Shown piece after piece: positions 31,173 to 64,000 of a stretch of 64,000 nt of DNA. The stretch covers positions 196,941 through 260,940 of the forward strand of contig CALMAY010000037.1 in NCBI GenBank assembly GCA_937861125.1, given 5' to 3'. Source of the stretch: an uncultured bacterium. GTDB taxonomy: Bacteria; Patescibacteriota; Patescibacteriia; Magasanikbacterales; UBA922. The first letter of the stretch is position 1. Every line of letters starts with the position of its first letter. The translations under genes were made by a program, and so were the position numbers. Below the pieces are notes generated by a model. That model ran no database searches. It was not told the DNA's origin and was given only the letters and a program-made list of their open reading frames with translations.

Positions 31173-31255
31173 GCCGAGATGGTGAAATGGTAGACACACT
31201 AGATTCAGGTTCTAGCGGGGGCAACCCCATGGAGGTTCAAGTCCTCTTCTCGGCA
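31173..31255 (+). tRNA. tRNA-Leu (anticodon CAG), long variable arm, no encoded CCA
   Basis: Acceptor gccgaga/tctcggc, anticodon stem ctaga/tctag with loop ttCAGgt, variable arm cgggggcaaccccatg, T-arm ggaggttcaagtcctc. Confidence 0.85.
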
Positions 31256-31421
31256 CGCACCGACAATTAACTGTTGACTGGTAACTATTAACCGTTGACA
31301 CTCTATACACTCTCGTTGCACAGAGCGTAAGCGGTCGTCATGGGTGTGAATGTTAATTGTTAAAAGTCAATTATTAATTGTTTTTTTACGGCCTTTGTGC
31401 CGATATTTTGAAGTAGTATTT

Positions 31422-52152: not shown

Positions 52153-52310
52153 TATTTTGTTTTGTTCTTTTGATGTCGTTATAGTTTGATACTTTGACTT
52201 TTTTATACTTTAGATTGTTGCTGGTCATTATCAATATATAATTTAATCTACACAAAACACAAAAAAAAGAGTATACTAGAGTGGTAATTCCACTCTTTAT
52301 GTTTTTTTCT

Positions 52311-53312
52311 ATGGGCACTACTCGTATTGCAATCAACGGCTTTGGTCGTATTGGTCGTCATGCGTTCAAAATTATCGCAGCGACCAAAGGAATGGAAGTA
52401 GTTGCGATCAATGATCTTACTGATAGTCGAACACTTTCACACCTTTTGAAATACGACACTGCCTATCCTGATTTCGCATCTGCTGTGTCGTATGATGAAA
52501 AAAATATCATCGTTGCAAAGAAAAAAATTCCTGTGTACGCAGAAAAAGAACCACAGCTGTTGCCATGGAAAAAATTGAAAGTGGATGTGGTGCTCGAATG
52601 TACCGGAAGATTTACGAGTAAAGAAGGTGCTGAGCTTCATCTCAAAGCTGGTGCGAAAAAAGTAGTGATTTCTGCTCCAACTAAAAGTGCTGATGTACCA
52701 ACCTTTGTGATCGGAGTCAATGAGAAACAATACAAAGGCGAAAGTATCGTCAGTAATGCATCGTGTACGACTAACTGTGCATCACCAGTGATGAAAGTAC
52801 TCGAAGATACATTTGGAATTGAGAAAGCAATGCTCACTACTGTGCATAGTTACACCGCCACACAACCACTCCAAGATGGTCCAAGCAAAGATCTGCGTGA
52901 AGCACGTGCAGCGGCACAAAATATGGTACCGACGACTACTGGTGCGGCGATTGCAACCACGCTGACGATCCCGCAGCTTGCAGGAAAATTTGATGGTCTC
53001 TCTGTGCGTGTGCCAACGATTACAGTATCTATGGTAGATATCACTGCGGTGCTCAAAAAAGAGGTGACCAAAGAGCAGCTCAATAGTGCATTTATAAAAG
53101 CAACAAAAGGTCCAATGAAGTCAGTACTGGCAGTCTCAGAAGCGCCGCTCGTCTCATCTGATTTTATTGGTGACGAGCATTCTGCGACGGTTGATCTACC
53201 GCTGACCTATGTGGTTGGTGGAAATCTGGTCAAAGTAATTGCGTGGTATGACAACGAGTGGGGATATGCAAATCGTCTTGTGGAGATGGCAAAATTAGTG
53301 GCAAAAAGATAA
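52311..53312 (+). CDS. gap: Glyceraldehyde-3-phosphate dehydrogenase (type I)
   Basis: RIAINGFGRIGRHAFK, SNASCTTNC and WYDNEWGYANR. Confidence 0.92.
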   Translation: MGTTRIAINGFGRIGRHAFKIIAATKGMEVVAINDLTDSRTLSHLLKYDTAYPDFASAVSYDEKNIIVAKKKIPVYAEKEPQLLPWKKLKVDVVLECTGRFTSKEGAELHLKAGAKKVVISAPTKSADVPTFVIGVNEKQYKGESIVSNASCTTNCASPVMKVLEDTFGIEKAMLTTVHSYTATQPLQDGPSKDLREARAAAQNMVPTTTGAAIATTLTIPQLAGKFDGLSVRVPTITVSMVDITAVLKKEVTKEQLNSAFIKATKGPMKSVLAVSEAPLVSSDFIGDEHSATVDLPLTYVVGGNLVKVIAWYDNEWGYANRLVEMAKLVAKR

Positions 53313-53315
53313 TAT

Positions 53316-54548
53316 ATGGCGATTCGCTCTTTGTCTTCACTTCATATATCACCAGGTGACGTGGTGCTGGTTCGGGTTGATTATAATGTGGCGATAAAAA
53401 ACAAAAAAGTAGTAGAGGATGAAAAAATTCGAGCTTCAATCCCAACCATTCATGCATTACAACAAAAGGGAGCAAAAGTATTGCTTGTGTCACATTTGGG
53501 CAGACCAGAGAGCAAGATCGATGTACAGTATTCTCTTGAACCAGTTCGAAAAGTACTTGAAAAAATATTGAGTTATAAAGTTATAAAGGTAGAAAGCTAT
53601 AAAGTTGTATCTTCGAGTAAAGAAGTTATTTTTGATATTCCCTCTATTCGTGTACAGATAGAAAAGATGAACGCGGGCGATGTAGCTTTGTTTGAAAATA
53701 TTCGGTTTGCCAAAGGGGAGGAGAGAAATGATCGTGCGTTTGCAAAAACACTTGCATCGTTTGCTAATGCGTTTGTACTCGATGGGTTTGCAGTGTCGCA
53801 CCGTGATAGTGCGTCAGTGTCTGGTGTGGCGCAGTATCTACCAGCGTATGCTGGGGTGTTGCTGGAGCGTGAGGTCAAAAGTCTTGGACAAGTTATGGAA
53901 AAACCCAAAAAACCATTTTGCTTGGTACTCGGTGGTGTCAAAATGGAAACCAAGATTCCAGTACTAAAAAAACTGTTACCAAAAACACAGTCAGTGTTGC
54001 TCGGTGGAGGTGTCGCCAATACGTACTTTGCTGCACGAGGATATGGAGTAGGAAAATCAGTGATTGATAGTGCATATACAAAGGAGATTGTGCGATATGC
54101 AAAACAAAAGAAAGTGGTTTTGCCAGTTGATGTGGTGGTGGGCACGCCTGACGGGAAACAATACCGCGTGGTGTCAATTGAAAAAAAGCCGCATCAGATC
54201 TGCAAACGAGGGGAGATGATTTTGGATCTCGGACCTGTAACACTTTTGCACTATGCTACGTATATACAGGCAGCAAAGACGATTGTATGGAATGGCGGTA
54301 TGGGGTATATGGAGGTCAAACCGTATGATGTGGGCACACTCACTGTCGCACGACTCGTCGCAGGGCGATCACGTGGTCAGGCATATGGTGTAGTAGGTGG
54401 TGGTGAGACGATTACCGCTCTTAGTCAGACCAAGATGTCACAGTATGTCGACGTTGTTTCTACTGGCGGAGGTGCAATGCTTGAATTTTTGTCAGGGAAA
54501 CAACTGCCTGGTGTAAAAGTGGTGACAAAAAAATGGTATCATCGATAA
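53316..54548 (+). CDS. pgk: Phosphoglycerate kinase
   Basis: VLVRVDYNV, LVSHLGRP, GGGVANTYF and VVGGGETI...STGGGAMLEFL. Confidence 0.9.
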   Translation: MAIRSLSSLHISPGDVVLVRVDYNVAIKNKKVVEDEKIRASIPTIHALQQKGAKVLLVSHLGRPESKIDVQYSLEPVRKVLEKILSYKVIKVESYKVVSSSKEVIFDIPSIRVQIEKMNAGDVALFENIRFAKGEERNDRAFAKTLASFANAFVLDGFAVSHRDSASVSGVAQYLPAYAGVLLEREVKSLGQVMEKPKKPFCLVLGGVKMETKIPVLKKLLPKTQSVLLGGGVANTYFAARGYGVGKSVIDSAYTKEIVRYAKQKKVVLPVDVVVGTPDGKQYRVVSIEKKPHQICKRGEMILDLGPVTLLHYATYIQAAKTIVWNGGMGYMEVKPYDVGTLTVARLVAGRSRGQAYGVVGGGETITALSQTKMSQYVDVVSTGGGAMLEFLSGKQLPGVKVVTKKWYHR

Positions 54549-54689
54549 AAATATGGTATACTTCCAATGAAATAAAATTATACAAAAATTAAGCATAAAT
54601 TATTTTTAGATATTTGTTTCATTTTTGTATAATTTCTGTTTCGCCTATCTTTATATTTTTCTATTCATTTTTTATTTTTGTTTTGTCTT

Positions 54690-55481
54690 ATGGCAACCAA
54701 TACGCAGCAACCACAACCATTTTTTGGTGAGTTCGGCCGTAAATTTATGGCCACATTAGTGAGTATTTTGTTGGTGTATGTTATCGTACTCGTCGGTACC
54801 ATGATCCGCAATAACATGCAAAAGTATAATACGATCGGTCAGGTAGACAGTATGCCTACTACTATTACCGTAGTTGGTGAAGGCAAGGTAACAGTCAAAC
54901 CAGATGTTGGTACTATCAACCTCGGTTTTTATACACAGGCTGATGATCTCAAAGCAGGTATTGCAAAAAATAATGAGATTATCAATAAGATGGTATCAGG
55001 TCTCAAGGCACTGGGTGTCGCAGAGGGTGATATCAAAACAGGTGGTCCTCAGACCAATCCACGTATGACATGGAATCCAGATGGAAGTAGTACACAAAAT
55101 GGATATGATATCAATCAAAATGTGACAGTAAAGGTACGTGATTTAACAAAATCACAAGACATTATCGGACTCGCTGGTGAGTCAGGGGCAAACACTGTCT
55201 CTCCACTTACCTTTGATGTAGACGAACCAAAAAATTATGAAGCACAGGCTCGACAAGAAGCAATCAATGAAGCATATGAAAAAGCACGTGTGCTGACACA
55301 ACAGCTCGGTATTTCAATTGTTCGTATGTCAAGTTACTATGAGACTAATAATGGTGGGTATCCAATGTATGATTATGGATATAACGCTGGGATGCCAATG
55401 GCAAAAACAATGGAGTCCACTGTAGAGCCAGGCAGTCAAGATGTAAACGTAGTAGTAAATATTGCTTTCGAAGTTCGCTAA
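54690..55481 (+). CDS. SIMPL/DUF541-domain protein, membrane-anchored
   Basis: TM segment, then TITVVGEGKVTVKPDVGTINLGF...QARQEAINEAYEKARVLTQQLG, typical of SIMPL (from memory). Confidence 0.6.
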   Translation: MATNTQQPQPFFGEFGRKFMATLVSILLVYVIVLVGTMIRNNMQKYNTIGQVDSMPTTITVVGEGKVTVKPDVGTINLGFYTQADDLKAGIAKNNEIINKMVSGLKALGVAEGDIKTGGPQTNPRMTWNPDGSSTQNGYDINQNVTVKVRDLTKSQDIIGLAGESGANTVSPLTFDVDEPKNYEAQARQEAINEAYEKARVLTQQLGISIVRMSSYYETNNGGYPMYDYGYNAGMPMAKTMESTVEPGSQDVNVVVNIAFEVR

Positions 55482-55497
55482 GTGTAGTTTCTAAAAA

Positions 55498-55529
55498 ACA
55501 GTCCTGCTACAATAGGGCTGTTTTTTTTC
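55498..55529 (+). terminator. Terminator after the SIMPL gene
   Basis: acagtcct...agggctgt plus T8. Confidence 0.65.
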
Positions 55530-55576
55530 TTAGGCGTGTTGTACACTATAGGGGTATGGATAGTTGGTGCATATTT

Positions 55577-55611
55577 CAACTGTCCAACTTACCAACTTAT
55601 TAACTGATTGT
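55577..55611 (+). repeat. 8-9-bp periodic CAACTNNN array abutting the eno ATG
   Basis: caactgtc|caacttac|caacttatt|aactgattgt|ATG. Confidence 0.7.
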
Positions 55612-56859
55612 ATGAATACAACAATAAAGCAAGTGCACGCCCTAGAAATCCTCGACTCCCGCGGCAATCCAACAGTTCGTGCCTATGTCACCCTCGTAGA
55701 TGGTTCTATCGGCGTGGCTTCTGTCCCAAGCGGGGCAAGTACGGGCACACATGAAGCGTGTGAACTTCGTGATGGGGGCAAACGGTATGGTGGTAAGGGT
55801 GTACGAAAAGCAGTAGACCATGTCAACGGTCCGATTGCCAAAGCATTGCGCGGGCTCGACGCGACGCAGCAGCGGTTTATCGATGGTGTGATGGTCAATC
55901 TGGATGGGACAAAAAACAAAAAGAAACTTGGTGCAAATGCGATACTTTCTGTGTCGCTCGCAGTTGCTCGTGCGGCTGCAATGAGTAAAAAGAAACCACT
56001 GTATAGTTATCTACGCACCGCGTTTCGCATCAAAGAAAAAGGATATTCATTTCCACTCTTTGGGATGAATATTATCAATGGCGGTAGGCATGCGGATAAC
56101 GGATTGACAGTGCAGGAGTTTATGATTGTACCACTGATGAAGACTGTCTCTGAGCGTGTGCGTGTCGGCGCAGAGGTGTTTCATACACTTGGTGCGTTGC
56201 TGAGTAAAAAAGGATTTCATATTGGTGTAGGAGATGAAGGTGGATATGCACCAGAACTTTCCAATAATGAGCAGGCAATTTTATATATTATTCAGGCAAT
56301 CAAACTCGCAGGGTATATTCCTGGAAAACAGGTTGGGATTGCACTGGACGTTGCGGCATCAGAGTTTTATCTCAAGGGACAATATTTTTTTGCAAATAAA
56401 AAAGACGGGATGACATCAGATGCACTTTCAACTGAGTTGCAACGGTTGATAAAAACATATCCATTTGTTTCTATTGAGGATCCATTTGCAGAGGATGATT
56501 GGAGTGCGTGGACACAGTTTACCAAGATATTGGGTAAAAAAATGCCAATTGTCGGAGATGATTTGTTTGTCACAAATGTTGAACGTTTGCAAATGGGAAT
56601 TGAGAAAAAAGCAGGGAATACGATTTTGATCAAAGTCAATCAAATTGGTTCGCTGACAGAAACAATGGATACCATTGCACTTGCACGAAAACATGGGTAC
56701 AAGATCTTTATGTCGCATCGCTCTGGTGAGACGGGGGATACCTTTATTTCTGACCTCGCTGTGGCTGTGAATGCTGAATATATGAAGACTGGTTCGCTCT
56801 CTCGTAGTGAGCGGATTGAGAAGTATAATCGGATGTTAGAGATTGAAGAGGAAATGTAA
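55612..56859 (+). CDS. eno: Enolase
   Basis: IKQVHALEILDSRGNPTVRAYVTL...SHRSGETGDTFISDLAVA. Confidence 0.92.
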   Translation: MNTTIKQVHALEILDSRGNPTVRAYVTLVDGSIGVASVPSGASTGTHEACELRDGGKRYGGKGVRKAVDHVNGPIAKALRGLDATQQRFIDGVMVNLDGTKNKKKLGANAILSVSLAVARAAAMSKKKPLYSYLRTAFRIKEKGYSFPLFGMNIINGGRHADNGLTVQEFMIVPLMKTVSERVRVGAEVFHTLGALLSKKGFHIGVGDEGGYAPELSNNEQAILYIIQAIKLAGYIPGKQVGIALDVAASEFYLKGQYFFANKKDGMTSDALSTELQRLIKTYPFVSIEDPFAEDDWSAWTQFTKILGKKMPIVGDDLFVTNVERLQMGIEKKAGNTILIKVNQIGSLTETMDTIALARKHGYKIFMSHRSGETGDTFISDLAVAVNAEYMKTGSLSRSERIEKYNRMLEIEEEM

Positions 56860-56907
56860 TAAGTGACGAAGAAAAGAAGTTGTGAAGAAACGAAAAGAAA
56901 ACAAAAA

Positions 56908-56933
56908 AGAGAGTAACGTTACTCTCTTTTTTG
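56908..56933 (+). terminator. Terminator of eno
   Basis: agagagtaac/gttactctct palindrome plus T6. Confidence 0.75.
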
Positions 56934-56962
56934 TTCCATGTATGGTATACTATATCTATATT

Positions 56963-58594
56963 ATGAACACAAAAAAGAGTCAGAAGCCTACTCGCCTTAC
57001 TCAAAAGAAAAAGGTGAGTAAAATGAAAGAAAGACGTGTCAAAAAAACACCTGTTGTTTTGGTTATTTTGGATGGATTCGGTTTGGCAAATGAAAAAAAC
57101 AAAGGCAACGCAATTACCAAAAAAACAGCTCCAAATATCTTTGCCTACATGCACCACTATCCGACGACAACGTTGACGGCGCATGGTGAAGCGGTGGGGT
57201 TGTTCAAGGATCAAGAGGGAAATTCGGAGGCGGGACATTTTAATATTGGTGCGGGACGGGTGGTTGAACAGGATTTGGTGCGAATTTCACGTGCGATTAG
57301 TGATGGGACTTTTTTCAAAAATACTGCATTTGAACAGGCGGTGTATCATGTGCAAAAATATAAAAGCGCTGTACATGTAATGGGACTTTTGACAGATAAT
57401 CAAAGTGCACACGCACGACCAGAACATTTGTATGCAACGCTTGAATATCTGCGTAAAAAGAAAATTAAAAAAGTGTATCTTCATCTGTTTACCGATGGAC
57501 GTGATGCGCCACCGCATGCTGCGGTGATGTTCCTCAAGGAGCTTCGTTTGAGATTGTTACCACATGAACGTATTGCCTCTATCTCCGGCCGTTTTTATGC
57601 GATGGATCGAGGTAAAAATTGGGACCGTACCGAAAAAACATATGCAGCGTTGGTGCATCCTGTTGGTACGACACGTATTGCTCGTAGTGCTGAGGAAGCT
57701 ATTATGCATGCGTATAATAATGGAGAGAGTGATGAATATATTCTCCCTACTGCAATTGTTACAGATGATGGTCCGGTTGGGACGATTGAGAGCAATGATG
57801 TAGTATTCTTTTTCAATGCGCGCAGTGACCGAGCGAGACAGCTCACCAAAGCGTTTGTACAAAAAGAGTTTGTTAAACTTAACCCAGGTGCTTTTGTTCG
57901 TCGTGACGCACCAAAAAACATTCGCTTTGTGGCGATGACTGATTTTGGTCCAGATCTTGATCATGTACTTAGTGCGTTTCCGAGTCCAGACGTCTCTATG
58001 TGTCTGGCCAAGGCGATTGGAATGGAGAGAAAACAACTGTATATTTCTGAGACAGAGAAGTACGCTCATGTTACCTATTTTCTCAATGGTGGATATCCAG
58101 ATCCAATTGATGGGGAGAAACGAGAACTTATTCAGTCTACGAGTCATGTGTCTTATGTAGAACGCCCACAGATGGAGATCAAAAAAGTAATTGATACAAT
58201 TATTCATCATATTGAACGAGGGAGATTTGATTTTATTTGTGTCAATTTACCAAATGCTGATATGGTGGGACATACGGGCGATTTTGCAGCAGCCAAGCAG
58301 GCAGTCAAGATATTGGACAAAGAATTAGGAAGATTGGTAGACTGCTTGCGTCAACATCATGGATTGTGTATAGTCACAGCAGACCATGGGAATGCTGAGG
58401 AGATGATTGATCTTAAAACTGGACTTCCATTCACTGAGCATACGACTAATCCTGTACCGTTTATCCTTGTTTCGAACAGACTTTATGGGAAAAAACTACA
58501 TAAGGGTGGCGCGCTGTGTGATGTGGCGCCGACGGTGCTGGGATTGTTAGAAATTGAGAAACCAAAGGAGATGACTGGAAAAAGTCTTTTATGA
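56963..58594 (+). CDS. gpmI: 2,3-bisphosphoglycerate-independent phosphoglycerate mutase, copy 1
   Basis: VILDGFGL, GNSEAGHFNIGAGR, FTDGRDAPP, NLPNADMVGHTG and TADHGNAEEM. Alternative start at 57023 (MKERRV), preceded by aaggtga. Confidence 0.85.
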   Translation: MNTKKSQKPTRLTQKKKVSKMKERRVKKTPVVLVILDGFGLANEKNKGNAITKKTAPNIFAYMHHYPTTTLTAHGEAVGLFKDQEGNSEAGHFNIGAGRVVEQDLVRISRAISDGTFFKNTAFEQAVYHVQKYKSAVHVMGLLTDNQSAHARPEHLYATLEYLRKKKIKKVYLHLFTDGRDAPPHAAVMFLKELRLRLLPHERIASISGRFYAMDRGKNWDRTEKTYAALVHPVGTTRIARSAEEAIMHAYNNGESDEYILPTAIVTDDGPVGTIESNDVVFFFNARSDRARQLTKAFVQKEFVKLNPGAFVRRDAPKNIRFVAMTDFGPDLDHVLSAFPSPDVSMCLAKAIGMERKQLYISETEKYAHVTYFLNGGYPDPIDGEKRELIQSTSHVSYVERPQMEIKKVIDTIIHHIERGRFDFICVNLPNADMVGHTGDFAAAKQAVKILDKELGRLVDCLRQHHGLCIVTADHGNAEEMIDLKTGLPFTEHTTNPVPFILVSNRLYGKKLHKGGALCDVAPTVLGLLEIEKPKEMTGKSLL

Positions 58595-60165
58595 AACCAA
58601 AACCACTTGTACTCGCCATCCTCGATGGCTGGGGCGTCGCTCCGCCTAGTGAGGGTAACGCTATCATGCATGCCAAGACTCCAGCAATGGATAGTTTTTT
58701 GCGTGAGTATCCGTGTATGACATTGTTTGCTTCAGGAGCTGAGGTTGGGTTGTCATTTGGTGAGATGGGGAATTCTGAAGTGGGGCATCTTAATATTGGT
58801 GCGGGGCGTGTCTATTATCAGACCCTTCCGCGTATTGATCATGCAATCGTCGACCGAACATTTCATACCAATAGTGCGTTTGTCCAAGCCGCTGAACATG
58901 TTAAAAAAAATAACAGTAGATTACATCTGATTGGATTGGTGAGTCATGGTAATGTTCATGCGAGTCAAGATCATTTGCATGAGCTTTTAGCATTTGCAAA
59001 ACAACAAGATTTGGATGAAGTGTATATCCACGCGATTCTCGACGGACGTGACGCTTCACGTGATAGTGGGGCGACGTTTATCGAAGAACTTCAGGGGGTG
59101 ATGAAGAAACATAAAGTTGGCGAAATCGCGACACTGTGTGGACGCTACTATGCGATGGATCGTGATAATCGTTGGGATCGTATTGAAAAAGCATATTTGG
59201 CAATGGCACAGGGAATTGGGCAAGCATATGCCAAAGATCCACTTGATGCGATCACTGAGTCATATAAAAATAATGTATTTGATGAAGAGTTTTTACCAAC
59301 AGTGATTGGAAAAGAAGGAAAACCTACCACAGTCATTGCTGATGGAGATGCAGTTATATTTTTTAATTTTCGTCCCGATCGTGCTCGACAGTTGACCAAA
59401 GCATTTGTGTTGCCTGCATTTGAAAAATTTGAGCGACACTATATTGAAAATCTTTTTTTTGTGACGATGACAGAATATGAAAAAGAAACGCCAGTTGTTG
59501 TGGCCTATCCACCAAATGTGGTGGTCAATTCACTCGCAGAAGTGGTAAGTAAAGCTGGGCTCAAACAGTTTCATATTGCTGAGACAGAAAAATATGCACA
59601 CATTACGTTCTTTTTAAATGGGACCATTGAGGATGAATTTCCCAAAGAGGATCGAGCGATTATTCCTTCTCCGCAAGTTGCTACGTATGATCAGGCACCT
59701 GCCATGTCAGCATACGAAATTACCAAAGAGGTGATTCGTGTGATTGATGGGGAGGAATACGATTGTATTTTTCTCAATTTTGCTAATCCAGATATGGTGG
59801 GGCATACAGGAAATCTTAAAGCAACGATTGAAGCGATAGAAATTGTGGATGAATGTTTGCAAAAAATTGCAGATCACACATTGGCAAAAAATGGTGTGTT
59901 GGTAGTCACTGCAGATCATGGCAACGCAGAAGAGGTGACCAATGTGCAAACAGGAGCAATGGATAAAGAACATAGTACCAATCCCGTTCCACTTATTATC
60001 ATTGGCAATCAGTATCGAGGACTTGCTGGTCCAGCAGGAGATCCTCCAAATGGCGATCTCTCACTGATGCCGCCAGTAGGTATGCTCTCAGATGTGGCGC
60101 CAACTATTTTGAGATTACTTGAGATAGAGCAGCCTCCAGAGATGACAGGGAGACCATTGGTATAG
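58591..60165 (+). CDS. gpmI: 2,3-bisphosphoglycerate-independent phosphoglycerate mutase, copy 2
   Basis: AILDGWGV, GNSEVGHLNIGAGR, ILDGRDASRDSG, NFANPDMVGHTG and TADHGNAEEV. Its ATG overlaps the copy-1 TGA (ATGA). Confidence 0.88.
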   Translation: MKPKPLVLAILDGWGVAPPSEGNAIMHAKTPAMDSFLREYPCMTLFASGAEVGLSFGEMGNSEVGHLNIGAGRVYYQTLPRIDHAIVDRTFHTNSAFVQAAEHVKKNNSRLHLIGLVSHGNVHASQDHLHELLAFAKQQDLDEVYIHAILDGRDASRDSGATFIEELQGVMKKHKVGEIATLCGRYYAMDRDNRWDRIEKAYLAMAQGIGQAYAKDPLDAITESYKNNVFDEEFLPTVIGKEGKPTTVIADGDAVIFFNFRPDRARQLTKAFVLPAFEKFERHYIENLFFVTMTEYEKETPVVVAYPPNVVVNSLAEVVSKAGLKQFHIAETEKYAHITFFLNGTIEDEFPKEDRAIIPSPQVATYDQAPAMSAYEITKEVIRVIDGEEYDCIFLNFANPDMVGHTGNLKATIEAIEIVDECLQKIADHTLAKNGVLVVTADHGNAEEVTNVQTGAMDKEHSTNPVPLIIIGNQYRGLAGPAGDPPNGDLSLMPPVGMLSDVAPTILRLLEIEQPPEMTGRPLV

Positions 60166-60171
60166 ACAAAA

Positions 60172-60199
60172 ACACTCACGATACCGTGGGTGTTTTTAT
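60172..60199. terminator. Bidirectional terminator between gpmI copy 2 and the DHH gene
   Basis: acactcacg...cgtgggtgt (one mismatch) plus T5. Confidence 0.6.
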
Positions 60200-61341
60200 G
60201 GATTCATTTTTTGTTTGATACTCTCAATGAGTATTGTTTCAGATTCATTAAGTGTTTTATTGCTTAGCTTAATCTGTGCAAGTCGTTTTGTGCCAACTGG
60301 ATTGAATCCTTTGAGGAGATCCAGTGCGTTATACTCTTTGCTTGTACTGAGATGTGCGGTGACAAATGTCTTATCTGCTTCACTTTGTTCGTACAGGAGT
60401 GCTACGAGTTTTGCCTCAGGAGAGTTGATAATGAGTTCATCGATGATATCGATGAGATCTTCTTTGGTTGCACCTGAGCGTGTAAAGTCTTCGCGTGTGA
60501 TAGTAGTTGAGACGAGATTAATATCTTTTTCTAGTTTGAGATGTGTCAGTGCAGTACCCCAGAGTCGTAGCGCAGAGACGGTGCGTGTGCGGTAGAGGTG
60601 CTTGACGATATCATCTCGGTCTGCACCCATGCGGATGAGTTCGCTCGCGGTTGAGAGAGTGTGTGGACGTACATTTTCTGATTTGAAACTACGAGTACGG
60701 GCGATGATAGCAGTAAGTAATGCAGTAGCTACTGTTTTGTCTATATATTCTTTTCCAATTTCTTTCATGAGTGAGAAAAGAAGTTCTCCGGTCGCGGTTG
60801 CAGTGATGTCCACCAGGTTGATATGTCCGTGATGTTCATTACTACTATCGTGATCGATATTAACAACAGGTGTTTTGTGAAAGAGCTCACTGTGCGCACT
60901 GTGTACGATACCCAGCTGTGCATGATCTTGAACCCCCAGTGTAAAGACGAGATCATATTTGAAGTCTGATTCTGCAGTCTTTACTTGCTCTTGTTTCATG
61001 ATGCCGTTTTTGGGTGTGATAAAGATGCGAAGTTTGTCTGAGACGAGATCATATCGGAGTTCATCCACTCCTGTCTCTGTGACGTCTAAAGTGATGATAA
61101 ATGTCTTGACTTGCGTTAGCGAGGGTGCGATACGGTCACTGTGTTTGAGAAATTGATAATTACTACTGAGCACAAAATCAGGCGAGACGATATCTGCTCG
61201 TTTGCCCATGTTTGATAGATATGTAAGCAATGCCAAAGCACTCCCAATCGCGTCGCCGTGTGGAGAGCGGGGAATAGCAATCAGAATATGTGATTTGTCG
61301 CTTATCAGCTTTTTAATTTGTTCTTTTTGTTCGAGTACCAT
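60196..61341 (-). CDS. DHH-family phosphoesterase (NrnA-like; motifs partly degenerate)
   Basis: ILIAIPRSPHGDAIGSALAL and VVNIDHDSSNEHHG. Start trimmed to MVLEQKEQ (61341), because the upstream 114 codons of the ORF-track ORF are Arg-rich and lie in a compositionally foreign segment. Confidence 0.55.
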   Translation of the reverse strand: MVLEQKEQIKKLISDKSHILIAIPRSPHGDAIGSALALLTYLSNMGKRADIVSPDFVLSSNYQFLKHSDRIAPSLTQVKTFIITLDVTETGVDELRYDLVSDKLRIFITPKNGIMKQEQVKTAESDFKYDLVFTLGVQDHAQLGIVHSAHSELFHKTPVVNIDHDSSNEHHGHINLVDITATATGELLFSLMKEIGKEYIDKTVATALLTAIIARTRSFKSENVRPHTLSTASELIRMGADRDDIVKHLYRTRTVSALRLWGTALTHLKLEKDINLVSTTITREDFTRSGATKEDLIDIIDELIINSPEAKLVALLYEQSEADKTFVTAHLSTSKEYNALDLLKGFNPVGTKRLAQIKLSNKTLNESETILIESIKQKMNP

Positions 61342-61409
61342 ATTGTTTGGCTCACCACAGACGACAAGCGGTGTCTCTGGTGAGCCCCTCCTTCCTCCTT
61401 GGATTTGGG

Positions 61410-61673
61410 CTACAGTTTGCGACCACGCGCTCGTGCGAGACGTGGGTCGTAGGTAACGGGTGGACGTCGGTTTCGCCTTTGTCGGCGCCATTTCCTCAAA
61501 AAGAGATAGGCGCGAATAAAGACGAATAGAACGAACGACGTCCCCATCATCCGCGGTGCATCCGGAAACGCTCCTATGGAAAAGAGCATTCCTGTAATTA
61601 CCGTGGTAGTGACGAGGGCGACGGGCGTCTCGACGGAATGGAAAATGATGATCGGATCGTCTTCTTGGGTCAT
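61410..61673 (-). CDS. Small GC-rich ORF: predicted 2-TM protein with a poly-Arg tail (87 aa)
   Basis: Two hydrophobic segments and the tail RKWRRQRRNRRPP...RLARARGRKL. Third codon positions are G/C-enriched in this frame. Local G+C is 35/60 and 36/60 on lines 61441 and 61381. Confidence 0.45.
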   Translation of the reverse strand: MTQEDDPIIIFHSVETPVALVTTTVITGMLFSIGAFPDAPRMMGTSFVLFVFIRAYLFLRKWRRQRRNRRPPVTYDPRLARARGRKL

Positions 61674-61768
61674 CCTTCCTCATGTTTGTCGGAAAGTCGA
61701 CAGCTCACTATATCCTATACGAAGTGTGCTGTCAAGGCAAAATCTGTGGGTAAATACGCTAAAAATGC

Positions 61769-61807: not shown

Positions 61808-64000
61808 ATGTCTCTTATTGAATTACCAAAATCATACGAAGCCAAAGAGTACGAAGATCTCTTGTACAAAAAATGGGTAGAATCAGGGCTGTTTAACCCT
61901 GATATTTGTGTAGAAAAAGGCTACACAGAGCCAAATGCGACAGGGTATTCAATAGTATTGCCTCCACCGAATGTGACTGGAACGTTGCATATGGGTCATG
62001 CTGTTATGCTTGCCATTCAGGATGTGCTTATTCGATACCACCGCATGAAGGGAGATAGAACGCTTTGGGTGCCAGGAACTGATCATGCTGCCGTGGCGAC
62101 TCAAGTCAAAGTTGAAGGAAAAATGATTAAAGAAGAGGGATATACTAATCCAAAAGAAGAGTTGGGCCGCGAAGCGTTTTTGGAACGTGTTCGTGCATTT
62201 GCACAGGATTCTCATGATACGATAGTGAACCAGGCCAAGAAGATGGGTGCGTCACTGGATTGGTCTCGTGAAGCATATACACTTGATGAAGCACGTAACC
62301 TCGCGGTGCGGACAATGTTTGCGCAGATGCATGCTGACGGTTTGATCTATCGTGGCTATCGTGTCGTCAATTGGTCTGTCAAAGGACAATCAACGTGTAG
62401 TGATGATGAGCTTGTAATGATTGAACGTCCTGCAAAACTCTATACCTTTACCTACGGACCAGAATGTCCGATTGCGATCGCAACGACTCGTCCAGAAACA
62501 AAACTCGGAGATACTGCGATTGCAGTGCATCCTGAAGGAAGGTGGAAAGAGTACATTGGACAAACATTTACGATTTCTGATTTTGGACAGTCAGGTCACA
62601 CACTGACGTTGAAAGTGATTGGCGATGAAGGAGTAGAAGATGATTTTGGTACTGGTGCGCTCGGTGTGACTACGGCACACAGTCCGATTGACTTTGAAAT
62701 GTATACAAAACAAAAAGCACTGGGCAATGATATCGGGTTGATTTCGGTGATTGGTGAGGATGGAAACATGACGGCTCATGCAGGCGGCGAATATGCAGGC
62801 CTCTCTGTTGGTGATGCCAAAGAAAAGATTGTCTCTTGGCTTCGTGAAAGTGGAAGATTGCAAAAGGAAGAAGATATTACTCAAAACGTCGGCACCTCTG
62901 ATCGATTTTCTGATGTCGTAGAACCATTACCAAAGACACAGTGGTTTATCGATGTAAACAAAAAGATTGCTGGTAAAGGAATCTTTGCAGGACGACAGGT
63001 CTCTCTCAAAGAAATGATGCAAGAAGCCGTTCGTGGTGGGCATACCAAGATTGTTCCGGATCGTTTTGAAAAAACATATTTTCATTGGATTGATAATTTG
63101 CGTGACTGGTGTATTTCACGTCAGATTTGGTTTGGGCATCAGATTCCTGTATGGTATAAAACATTTAAAAAGCCAATTACCGTTACGGTGTGTCGACATG
63201 GGCAGTCAGAGCTGAATGTGTTGCATAAATCTGCGGGTCACATGGAGACATCTTTGACTGAAAAAGGGAGAGAAGATGCACAAAAAGCAAAAGAACTATT
63301 TGGAGATATTTCACAATATGATGCAGTATTTTGTTCTGATCTAGGTCGTGCAAAAGAAACGGCCACTATTATTTTTGGTACAGATGTTGAGATTCATTAT
63401 GATGCACGTTTGCGAGAAATTAATTACGGTGACCTTAATGGTGCTGATGATCATGCTGTAGATGAGTTAAGAATGGGCACGTATCCAAACGGAGAAAGTT
63501 ATCAAGATGTAAAAGCAAGAATAATACAGTTCTTTGATGATATTTCAGAAATGTATTCTGGAAAACGTATTGCTATTATTGGGCACACAGGCACTTATCA
63601 AATTATTGAGCATCTTGCGACAAATACTCCGTTGAGTATAGAGTATCTTTCAAGTCCTGCCAAACGAGAACCTCATACTTTTGTATTGAGTGATATTGCG
63701 ACTGTAAGTATAAAAGATTTGGATGGGGATGGGTGGGTGCAAGATCCTGATACACTTGACACTTGGTTTAGTGCTGGTATTTGGACATTTTCTGCACTAG
63801 GCTGGCCAAACGAAACAAATGATTTCAAGACATATCACCCAACAGCAGTGCTTGAAACGGGGTATGACATTTTGTTCTTTTGGGTTGCACGCATGATTCT
63901 TATGACGACATATGCGATCGGTAATGTGCCATTTAAAGATGTGTATCTGCATGGTCTCGTTCGTGATGAACAGGGGCGAAAGATGAGTAAGACACTGGGA
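61808..64000 (+). CDS. valS: Valyl-tRNA synthetase (3' end outside window) carrying an internal histidine-phosphatase domain insertion
   Basis: Hand translation gives an uninterrupted frame: PPPNVTGTLHMGHA, TTRPETKLGDTAIAVHPEG, WCISRQIWFGHQIPVWY, [insert with CRHGQSELN...IIGHTG], QDPDTLDTWFSAG, KMSKT. This ORF is absent from the ORF track, presumably because it runs off the window. Confidence 0.9.
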   Translation, partial: MSLIELPKSYEAKEYEDLLYKKWVESGLFNPDICVEKGYTEPNATGYSIVLPPPNVTGTLHMGHAVMLAIQDVLIRYHRMKGDRTLWVPGTDHAAVATQVKVEGKMIKEEGYTNPKEELGREAFLERVRAFAQDSHDTIVNQAKKMGASLDWSREAYTLDEARNLAVRTMFAQMHADGLIYRGYRVVNWSVKGQSTCSDDELVMIERPAKLYTFTYGPECPIAIATTRPETKLGDTAIAVHPEGRWKEYIGQTFTISDFGQSGHTLTLKVIGDEGVEDDFGTGALGVTTAHSPIDFEMYTKQKALGNDIGLISVIGEDGNMTAHAGGEYAGLSVGDAKEKIVSWLRESGRLQKEEDITQNVGTSDRFSDVVEPLPKTQWFIDVNKKIAGKGIFAGRQVSLKEMMQEAVRGGHTKIVPDRFEKTYFHWIDNLRDWCISRQIWFGHQIPVWYKTFKKPITVTVCRHGQSELNVLHKSAGHMETSLTEKGREDAQKAKELFGDISQYDAVFCSDLGRAKETATIIFGTDVEIHYDARLREINYGDLNGADDHAVDELRMGTYPNGESYQDVKARIIQFFDDISEMYSGKRIAIIGHTGTYQIIEHLATNTPLSIEYLSSPAKREPHTFVLSDIATVSIKDLDGDGWVQDPDTLDTWFSAGIWTFSALGWPNETNDFKTYHPTAVLETGYDILFFWVARMILMTTYAIGNVPFKDVYLHGLVRDEQGRKMSKTLG

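Follow-up and report, generated by a model that had tools for sequence, protein, structure and literature searches.

A histidine phosphatase domain inserted in the CP3 hairpin of a Patescibacteria valyl-tRNA synthetase, and its recurrence in related synthetases

We analyzed a 64,000-nucleotide stretch of DNA from an uncultured Patescibacteria bacterium (contig CALMAY010000037.1, positions 196,941 to 260,940 of the forward strand; hereafter, the window) and found that the valyl-tRNA synthetase (ValRS) gene at its end carries a complete branch-1 histidine phosphatase, inserted in frame in a hairpin of the connective polypeptide (CP). Few enzymes are as conserved as the aminoacyl-tRNA synthetases, and added catalytic domains in their cores are rare and have as a rule been a sign of new biology, for example editing, signaling, or resistance. 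As laid out below, the inserted domain is very probably an active phosphatase, it is accessory to its host, and similar inserts recur in ValRS and isoleucyl-tRNA synthetase (IleRS) proteins of other Patescibacteria.

The host gene is a ValRS by all measures that we applied. Its open reading frame (ORF) starts at position 61808 and remains open to the end of the window, as a preliminary description made from the letters alone had reported, and all motifs listed there were found where it had placed them. The synthetase family PF00133 (tRNA-synt_1) matched this ORF with an E-value of 1e-109, split into two stretches, and among the NCBIfam models the ValRS equivalogs ranked first. The full-length product (P0388, 1067 aa), which is 100% identical over the part within the window, scored above the cut-offs of the ValRS equivalogs NF004349 and TIGR00422 (935.2 versus 704 and 857.3 versus 612.1), where both matches again came in two stretches, split by the insert at about model positions 416 to 448. 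Beyond the window, P0388 also contains the anticodon-binding domain PF08264 and the C-terminal arm PF10458. The HIGH and KMSKS signatures, the CP1 editing domain, the anticodon-binding domain, and the C-terminal coiled-coil arm of T. thermophilus ValRS (1GAX) are thus all present in P0388, which differs from it by ~187 extra residues, these making up a phosphatase lobe that sits on the CP3 hairpin tip. The order of genes at the locus (enolase, iPGM, iPGM, DHH on the minus strand, ValRS, TyrRS, ArgRS) is shared by a close relative (L028, a 433-kb contig), whose ValRS (P0389, 888 aa) lacks the insert. Given this shared synteny with an insert-less protein, the window gene is, by its sequence and surroundings, the orthologous housekeeping ValRS of a Patescibacteria bacterium and not a spare paralogue; its nearest named relatives are Candidatus Magasanikbacteria, and P0388 would still charge tRNA-Val. 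Because the identical 1067-aa protein was assembled independently on 13 or more contigs, which come from different assemblies or independent samples (ENA ERZ724543, Logan SRR5676449 and SRR5676435, and NCBI records; longest contig, 329 kb), an assembly chimera, which the preliminary description had named as a way in which it could be wrong, is excluded.

Within the same ORF, residues 460 to 610 matched the histidine phosphatase family PF00300 (His_Phos_1) with an E-value of 7.6e-31, and a hidden Markov model (HMM) search with the insert alone gave 3.8e-32 (112 bits versus a cut-off of 21.7), well outside what chance would give. With PF00133 and PF00300 in one frame, the phosphatase lies inside the synthetase and is not a neighboring gene, just as had been proposed. 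The catalytic Arg, His, Arg, Glu, and His positions are likewise all occupied (RHG at 63194-63202, second His at 63584-63586): The branch-1 catalytic core is complete (R463, H464, N470, R514, E537, and H593) and aligns to PhoE. AlphaFold2 (AF2) predicted the insert alone with a pLDDT (predicted local distance difference test) of 90.6 and a pTM (predicted template modeling score) of 0.88, from an alignment of 119 sequences. Upon comparing this model to solved structures with Foldseek, the best match was PhoE/YhfR (1H2E; E-value 1.4e-13, TM-score 0.79), with further matches to PspA, Rv2419c, CobC, and dPGM, the whole range spanning E-values of 1e-13 to 1e-11; a phmmer search with the insert also returned PhoE as the best solved relative (3e-15). 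PhoE/YhfR of Geobacillus stearothermophilus (1H2E, 1EBB), itself of branch 1, aligns with the insert at the RHG, the second Arg, the Glu, and the second His, whereas the identity in the Foldseek alignment is just 25 to 26%, the insert is ~12 residues shorter in the cap region, and PhoE is free-standing while the insert is embedded in another enzyme. The full-length AF2 model of P0388 reached a pLDDT of 85.7 and a pTM of 0.77, with the synthetase parts mostly above 90 and values below 50 only at residues 605 to 630 and 632 to 639, i.e., in the return linker, and it matched T. thermophilus ValRS 1GAX with an E-value of 3e-57 and a TM-score of 0.80 (normalized by target length). In these predictions, the phosphatase is an autonomous lobe and the ValRS fold is intact, which settles at the level of models a structural question that the preliminary description had raised, and the return linker is probably a flexible tether. 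Table 1 collects the coordinates.

Table 1. Features of the ValRS gene and its phosphatase insert in the window (residues in P0388 numbering).
Feature	Position in window	Strand	Basis
ValRS gene, first 731 codons, open to window end	61808..64000	+	translation
HIGH-type class I signature HMGH, residues 61-64	61988..61999	+	
CP1 editing-domain motif TTRPETKLGDTA, residues 226-237	62483..62518	+	
Left border WCISRQIWFGHQIPVWY, residues 434-450: CP2-CP3 linker and first CP3 strand	63107..63157	+	
Segment absent from the syntenic orthologue, residues 452-638, ~187 aa	63161..63721	+	protein and DNA alignment with P0389 / L028
Histidine phosphatase domain PF00300, residues 460-610	63185..63637	+	Pfam, AF2, Foldseek, phmmer
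RHGQSELN: Arg463, nucleophile His464, Asn470	63194..63217	+	
Arg514 of SDLGRAKETA, phosphate pocket	63347..63349	+	
Glu537 of RLREINYGDLNG, expected proton donor	63416..63418	+	
His593 of IAIIGHTG, second catalytic His	63584..63586	+	
Return linker, residues 605-640	63620..63727	+	low AF2 confidence
Right border: kept second hairpin strand DGDGW, then QDPDTLDTWFSAGIWTFSALGWP	63722..63808	+	
QDPDTLDTWF, 3' of the insert	from 63740	+	
KMSKS-type signature KMSKT, residues 725-729	63980..63994	+	

The borders of the insert could be drawn by comparison with the insert-less orthologue. P0389 reads VWY-K-NEEMYCGVTAP-DGDGW-TQDPD, with 18 aa from VWY to QDPD, and the window protein reads VWY-K-[187 aa]-DGDGW-VQDPD, so that ~187 aa stand in place of the 11 aa (NEEMYCGVTAP) of the P0389 hairpin tip, and K451 and DGDGW (residues 639 to 643) belong, by this comparison, to the ancestral hairpin. 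The insert of ~194 aa (about 451 to 644) proposed earlier was therefore rightly placed, but its novel part is confined to residues 452 to 638. We take the insert-less hairpin as the ancestral state because more than 70 relatives without an insert share the consensus VWYKGEExYxGVxAPxGxGWxQDPD there, to which P0389 conforms. In other lineages, including several related insert-bearing ValRS, this hairpin holds a CxxC...CxxC zinc knuckle, and in P0001, P0002, P0004-P0006, and P0102 the phosphatase sits between both CxxC halves. The WCISRQIWFG motif is, by homology, the counterpart of the CP2-3 linker ARDWNVSRNRYWG of yeast IleRS, which lines a pocket for the tRNA CCA end and after which CP3 comes next (PMC7955072). 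From this linker homology, the host site is CP3 of the connective polypeptide beside the acceptor-end channel and not the Rossmann core; of the earlier placement within the ValRS catalytic core, what stands is that the insert lies inside ValRS. An 8-bp direct repeat GTATAAAA (63154-63161 and 63708-63715) was considered as a target-site duplication or excision scar and rejected, as its spacing of 554 bp is not a multiple of 3; the repeat around the insert is probably a chance occurrence in AT-rich DNA.

The label "PGAM/CobC-type" that the preliminary description had attached to the domain could not be retained. The models of CobC (alpha-ribazole phosphatase, TIGR03162; 91.6 bits versus a cut-off of 162.9), dPGM (TIGR01258; 60.3 versus 81.7 bits, covering only model positions 4 to 100 of 245), and SixA (phosphohistidine phosphatase, TIGR00249; 17.4 versus 74.5 bits) all scored below their cut-offs, and a mutase role for the insert is not needed, given the two iPGM genes directly upstream of the ValRS region. 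An intein was rejected as well, since the junctions (VWY/KTFKK and DLDGDGW/VQD) lack the Cys/Ser/Thr plus His-Asn signature and the fold is that of a phosphatase. The bifunctional RNase H / CobC-type acid phosphatase (NF005567; Rv2228c-type) likewise joins a branch-1 phosphatase to a nucleic-acid enzyme, but that is a terminal fusion to a different partner enzyme, whereas the window case is a loop insertion, and the insert scores 70 bits against the NF005567 cut-off of 326. When the 64-kb window was scanned with an HMM made from the insert together with its stand-alone relatives, no other gene for such a phosphatase turned up.

The arrangement turned out to be recurrent. An exhaustive search of 1.84 billion cluster representatives with a junction-region profile yielded 521 matches at an E-value of 1e-30 or lower, of which we classified the best 150. 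These comprised 63 ValRS or IleRS proteins (38 of at least 1000 aa; 14 with more than one phosphatase domain), 71 tandem two-domain phosphatases of ~400 to 430 aa, and 12 stand-alone proteins. All multidomain hosts above 600 aa among these best 150 were ValRS or IleRS, except for one triple dPGM, a host specificity that is inflated by the anchoring of the homologue searches on ValRS flanks. The number of phosphatase domains per synthetase ranged from one to four, with up to four in P0241. The 110 hosted domains fall at four sites (in P0389 numbering): site A, the CP3 hairpin that is also the site in the window (~450 to 465; 63 domains in ValRS and 17 in IleRS); site B, after GWP (~491 to 494; 20 in ValRS and 1 in IleRS); site C, at the boundary of CP core and CP2 (~387 to 398; 4 domains); and site D, downstream of KMSKS (5 domains, in IleRS). 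BLAST clustering showed that site A is taken by at least three phosphatase sequence clusters. Named hosts were Candidatus Magasanikbacteria, Candidatus Doudnabacteria, and "Patescibacteria group." In two lists of ValRS matches, PF00300 was the sole recurrent extra domain (10 of 120 and ~35 of 120), with ASCH seen once, and a scan of species-representative genomes returned insert-less ValRS only, with flank matches of ~58 aa.

The connective-polypeptide region is the classic insertion zone of class Ia synthetases, and the CP1 editing insertion and the IleRS with an N-acetyltransferase (GNAT) domain described by NCBIfam model NF040702 follow the same principle of an autonomous domain grafted onto a class Ia synthetase. 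The phosphatase inserts differ from these in their predicted chemistry (phosphomonoester hydrolysis), in their location in CP3, CP2, or after KMSKS, and in being often multi-copy and different between near-identical orthologues. NCBIfam holds no model for a phosphatase-bearing synthetase; several relatives are automatically named "class I tRNA ligase family protein," and one JGI record "valyl-tRNA synthetase/broad specificity phosphatase PhoE." A search of open-access papers and preprints found no paper on a histidine phosphatase inside a synthetase, an absence that is not proof. The architecture is widespread in public Patescibacteria metagenomic proteins, yet undescribed and not curated as a subtype: The earlier impression that it is undescribed holds up, while the window case is far from unique in ValRS and IleRS.

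Other irregularities were seen in the same synthetases. A Patescibacteria ValRS (P0020) carries an ASCH domain (PF04266) in exactly this hairpin, between VWY and QDPD; residues 326 to 472 of an IleRS with a phosphatase insert (P0362) match the REP-associated tyrosine transposase model NF047646 (81.3 bits versus a cut-off of 80); and extra segments of ~150 aa in P0264, P0268, P0286, P0305, P0334, P0432, and P0244 matched no Pfam family. In a Candidatus Doudnabacteria protein that starts at a contig edge (P0074; L002 1-150), ~40 non-ValRS-like residues stand right before YHWIDNLRDW and may be part of yet another domain insertion, here at the CP core / CP2 site. On two long contigs, Patescibacteria ValRS is encoded by two adjacent ORFs (194 + 525 aa, 10 nt apart, at L037 3406-5578; 249 + 400 aa at L036 3033-5203), which may be split synthetase genes or frameshifts.

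Sequence conservation points to a working domain. The six catalytic positions named above are invariant in 10 junction sequences that are ~36 to 39% identical to the window sequence. Among the 110 synthetase-hosted domains, the nucleophile His is kept in 109, the second Arg in 108, the second His in 104, the Asn in 99, the first Arg in 98, and the Glu in 95. For the pair P0391/P0392, whose inserts belong to the cluster of the window's insert, the Nei-Gojobori ratio of nonsynonymous to synonymous substitution rates (dN/dS) was 0.08 in the insert and 0.07 in the core, values that are approximate because dS is near saturation (1.49). In most close pairs, including every site-B pair, the identity of the inserts equaled or exceeded that of the cores (94.6% versus 88.3% and 93.8% versus 90.3% in two site-B pairs; 88.6% versus 84.5% in a site-A pair). 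By these comparisons, purifying selection acts on the insert just as strongly as on the ValRS core, the mark of a working domain. The conservation of the catalytic positions across the hosted copies and the low dN/dS in the related pair thus bear out the earlier suggestion of a probably active enzyme, and we regard phosphatase activity of the insert as very likely.

The insert appears to have a history of its own, distinct from that of its host. In a neighbor-joining tree of the ValRS core (816 columns, inserts removed), proteins with an insert at site A, with one at site B, and without any are mixed down to sister tips, and P0388 (site A) and P0389 (no insert) form such a pair of tips. These two proteins are 93.6% identical over residues 1 to 450 and 88.8% identical after the insert, and alignment with this syntenic, insert-less orthologue, an approach to dating that had been suggested in the preliminary description, indicates that the insertion is recent. 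Going by these alignments, the insert is accessory, and the insert states form a patchwork among related ValRS, with either of two sites occupied or none. The window insert is without a close relative: The best match, P0475, is 46% identical and has a core that is among the most distant, while the insert of P0391, a closer relative, is only 35% identical. At the DNA level, identity to L028 is 97.7% immediately upstream of the insert, drops to 74% in the first ~116 nt downstream, and amounts to 82 to 89% beyond. Directly after the insert (63767-63808), the window protein reads FSAGIWTFSALGWP versus FSSGLWTFSTLGWP, i.e., with three substitutions at nearly invariant positions; the other nine insert-bearing junction sequences have FSSGLWTFSTLGWP, except for one with FSSALWTFSTLGWP, and 112 close relatives follow the consensus at those three positions, at two of them in at least 90%. 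The GC content at third codon positions (GC3) of the insert is 0.237, compared to a mean of 0.365 for 735 control windows taken from 22 genes in this region, and ranks within the bottom 1.6% of these. The tree, the drop in identity, the substitutions, and the GC3 together suggest that the insert was recently imported from a divergent donor allele along with part of the sequence downstream, probably by homologous recombination of alleles through the ultra-conserved flanking motifs.

Outside the synthetases, the phosphatase cluster of the window insert falls together with a family of stand-alone, ~180-aa proteins (P0121-P0240) found in Patescibacteria and DPANN; members of this family are 40 to 47% identical to the insert. 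They share with it DAVFCSDLxRA, RLRExNYGDLNG, PNGESY, and IAIxxH, but mostly have (V/T)H(G/S)TTxDN instead of the RHGxxxxN motif, whereas the window insert has the canonical RHG; at the position of the first Arg, 119 aligned sequences contain 76 V, 26 T, and 5 R, one R being the window insert itself. This family was found with an insert-only, word-indexed search, which returned stand-alone proteins only and missed all synthetase-hosted copies, so that "nearest relative" is biased here by shared 5-mers. The ValRS inserts of P0275, P0286, P0394, and P0430 are clear members of the stand-alone family (more than 200 bits). A NUDIX gene adjoins the stand-alone phosphatase gene in two of three loci, with HD, MazG, and 2H-like genes nearby.

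Around the ValRS gene, the window contains a glycolytic cluster (52281-60165) of GAPDH, PGK, a SIMPL/DUF541 protein, and enolase, followed by two iPGM paralogues; the latter are tandem and overlapping (56882-58594 and 58591-60165), and the pair is also present in the syntenic relative. Between these and ValRS lies a gene for a DHH-family protein of 495 aa (60196-61683, minus strand), at the place of which the syntenic relative has ORFs of 381 and 87 aa. A tRNA-Leu(CAG) gene at 31173-31256 was the only RNA gene found in the 64-kb window by Rfam and tRNA scans. Downstream of the window (L025 8211-11134), the ArgRS region shows just 50 to 60% DNA identity to L028, compared to 80 to 95% for neighboring genes, and may be a gene replacement; L028 also has an additional 160-aa ORF between TyrRS and ArgRS.

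As for function, the lobe would hydrolyze a phosphomonoester via a phospho-His464 intermediate, in which Arg463, Arg514, and His593 would bind the phosphate group while the acid would be Glu537. The likeliest single substrate would be a phosphate or pyrophosphate at the 2' or 3' end of a tRNA that blocks charging. We favor a substrate linked to charging because the domains keep recurring in class Ia synthetases, often in several copies, and because the lobe lies by the CCA-end pocket; in this context, toxSAS enzymes are known to pyrophosphorylate the tRNA CCA end, some of them in a tRNA-specific manner (bioRxiv 10.1101/2021.04.30.441581; PMC11559606). That the role of the lobe is tied to the synthetase or the tRNA we hold to be evenly balanced between true and false, and the tRNA 3' end specifically is a tentative, on its own unlikely, choice. 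Several points weigh against a charging-linked role: Close relatives lack the insert, which is dispensable for ValRS; the stand-alone relatives beside NUDIX genes point to small nucleotide substrates; the poorly predicted return linker means that the lobe may be mobile; the host specificity and the dN/dS values carry the limits given with them above; and we know of no histidine-phosphatase-superfamily enzyme that acts on RNA 3' ends. An extension of the charging-linked reading, which we put forward as quite unlikely, is that the ValRS and IleRS lobes of Patescibacteria constitute a conflict-driven, horizontally exchanged repair module in the translation apparatus. After attack by toxSAS, CapRel, or FaRel2, such lobes would clear the CCA end of the cognate tRNA of the phosphate or pyrophosphate left there by the toxin, or they would alternatively act on the synthetase itself after a HipA-type attack, at the site of charging. 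A repair module would explain the class Ia specificity, the multiple sites and copies, the presence or absence in near-identical orthologues, and the strong purifying selection.

The most serious alternative, which we consider somewhat unlikely, is a hitch-hiking PhoE-type metabolite or nucleotide phosphatase whose chemistry is unrelated to charging, where the permissive loop of a constitutively expressed essential gene would secure expression and inheritance in a tiny genome. The closest solved relative is indeed the broad-specificity phosphatase PhoE, the stand-alone family is adjacent to NUDIX genes in two of three loci with HD, MazG, and 2H-like genes near, the insert is patchy and dispensable, and the same loops also host ASCH, a transposase-like segment, and the ~150-aa segments without a Pfam family. 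Convenience, however, hardly explains the repeated capture by ValRS and IleRS (four sites, at least three clusters, up to four copies), a metabolic need would be met by one copy, and PF00300 far outnumbers any other inserted domain. A built-in protein phosphatase that would remove an inhibitory phosphate, put by a toxin or regulatory kinase on the synthetase or a neighboring translation factor, appears very unlikely to us. It has a precedent in the HipA-family kinases that inactivate GluRS and TrpRS by phosphorylation (PMC6581861), and conflict systems typically show such a patchy, multi-copy distribution with fast turnover. The domain is moreover small (~155 to 165 aa), with a cap ~12 residues shorter than that of PhoE, and superfamily members with a small cap, such as SixA and PGAM5, generally have an open active site and act on proteins. 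Yet the SixA model is unmatched (17.4 versus 74.5 bits), no kinase gene was seen adjoining the loci examined, and no kinase targeting ValRS or IleRS is known to us; the case is one of analogy throughout. We judge it highly improbable that the lobe is a non-catalytic module, be it a ligand sensor, an RNA or protein docking surface, a spacer, or a neutral, decaying passenger: Although catalytic residues have been lost in a minority of the hosted domains (the first Arg in 12, the Glu in 15, and the second His in 6 of 110) and the nearest stand-alone family is mostly without the first Arg, the window copy has every catalytic residue, the nucleophile His is present in 109 of 110, the dN/dS is 0.08, and the fold is predicted with high confidence. 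The likelihood of an artefact or another kind of element (an assembly chimera, an unannotated intein or intron, or a misassembled dPGM/CobC fusion) is close to negligible, for nothing beyond the oddity of the architecture speaks for it, while the same gene came out of independent assemblies, full-length homologues number in the dozens, purifying selection acts on an uninterrupted frame, intein junction residues are absent, the dPGM, CobC, and SixA models stay below their cut-offs, and two iPGM genes lie upstream.

The finding adds a predicted second, unrelated active site beside the tRNA acceptor-end channel, which has been acquired repeatedly in two synthetase families of Patescibacteria. In the minimal genomes of these bacteria, each extra domain is costly, and the recurrence in dozens of related ValRS and IleRS indicates that the arrangement was probably selected for. 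The insert also has a practical consequence, as it pushes some of these synthetases under annotation cut-offs. Were the lobe only a passenger, it would offer a clean natural case in which an inserted domain moves from allele to allele of an essential gene with no homing machinery; if its substrate is instead the tRNA end or the synthetase, the lobe would represent a new layer of tRNA quality control or a defense against translation-targeting toxins.

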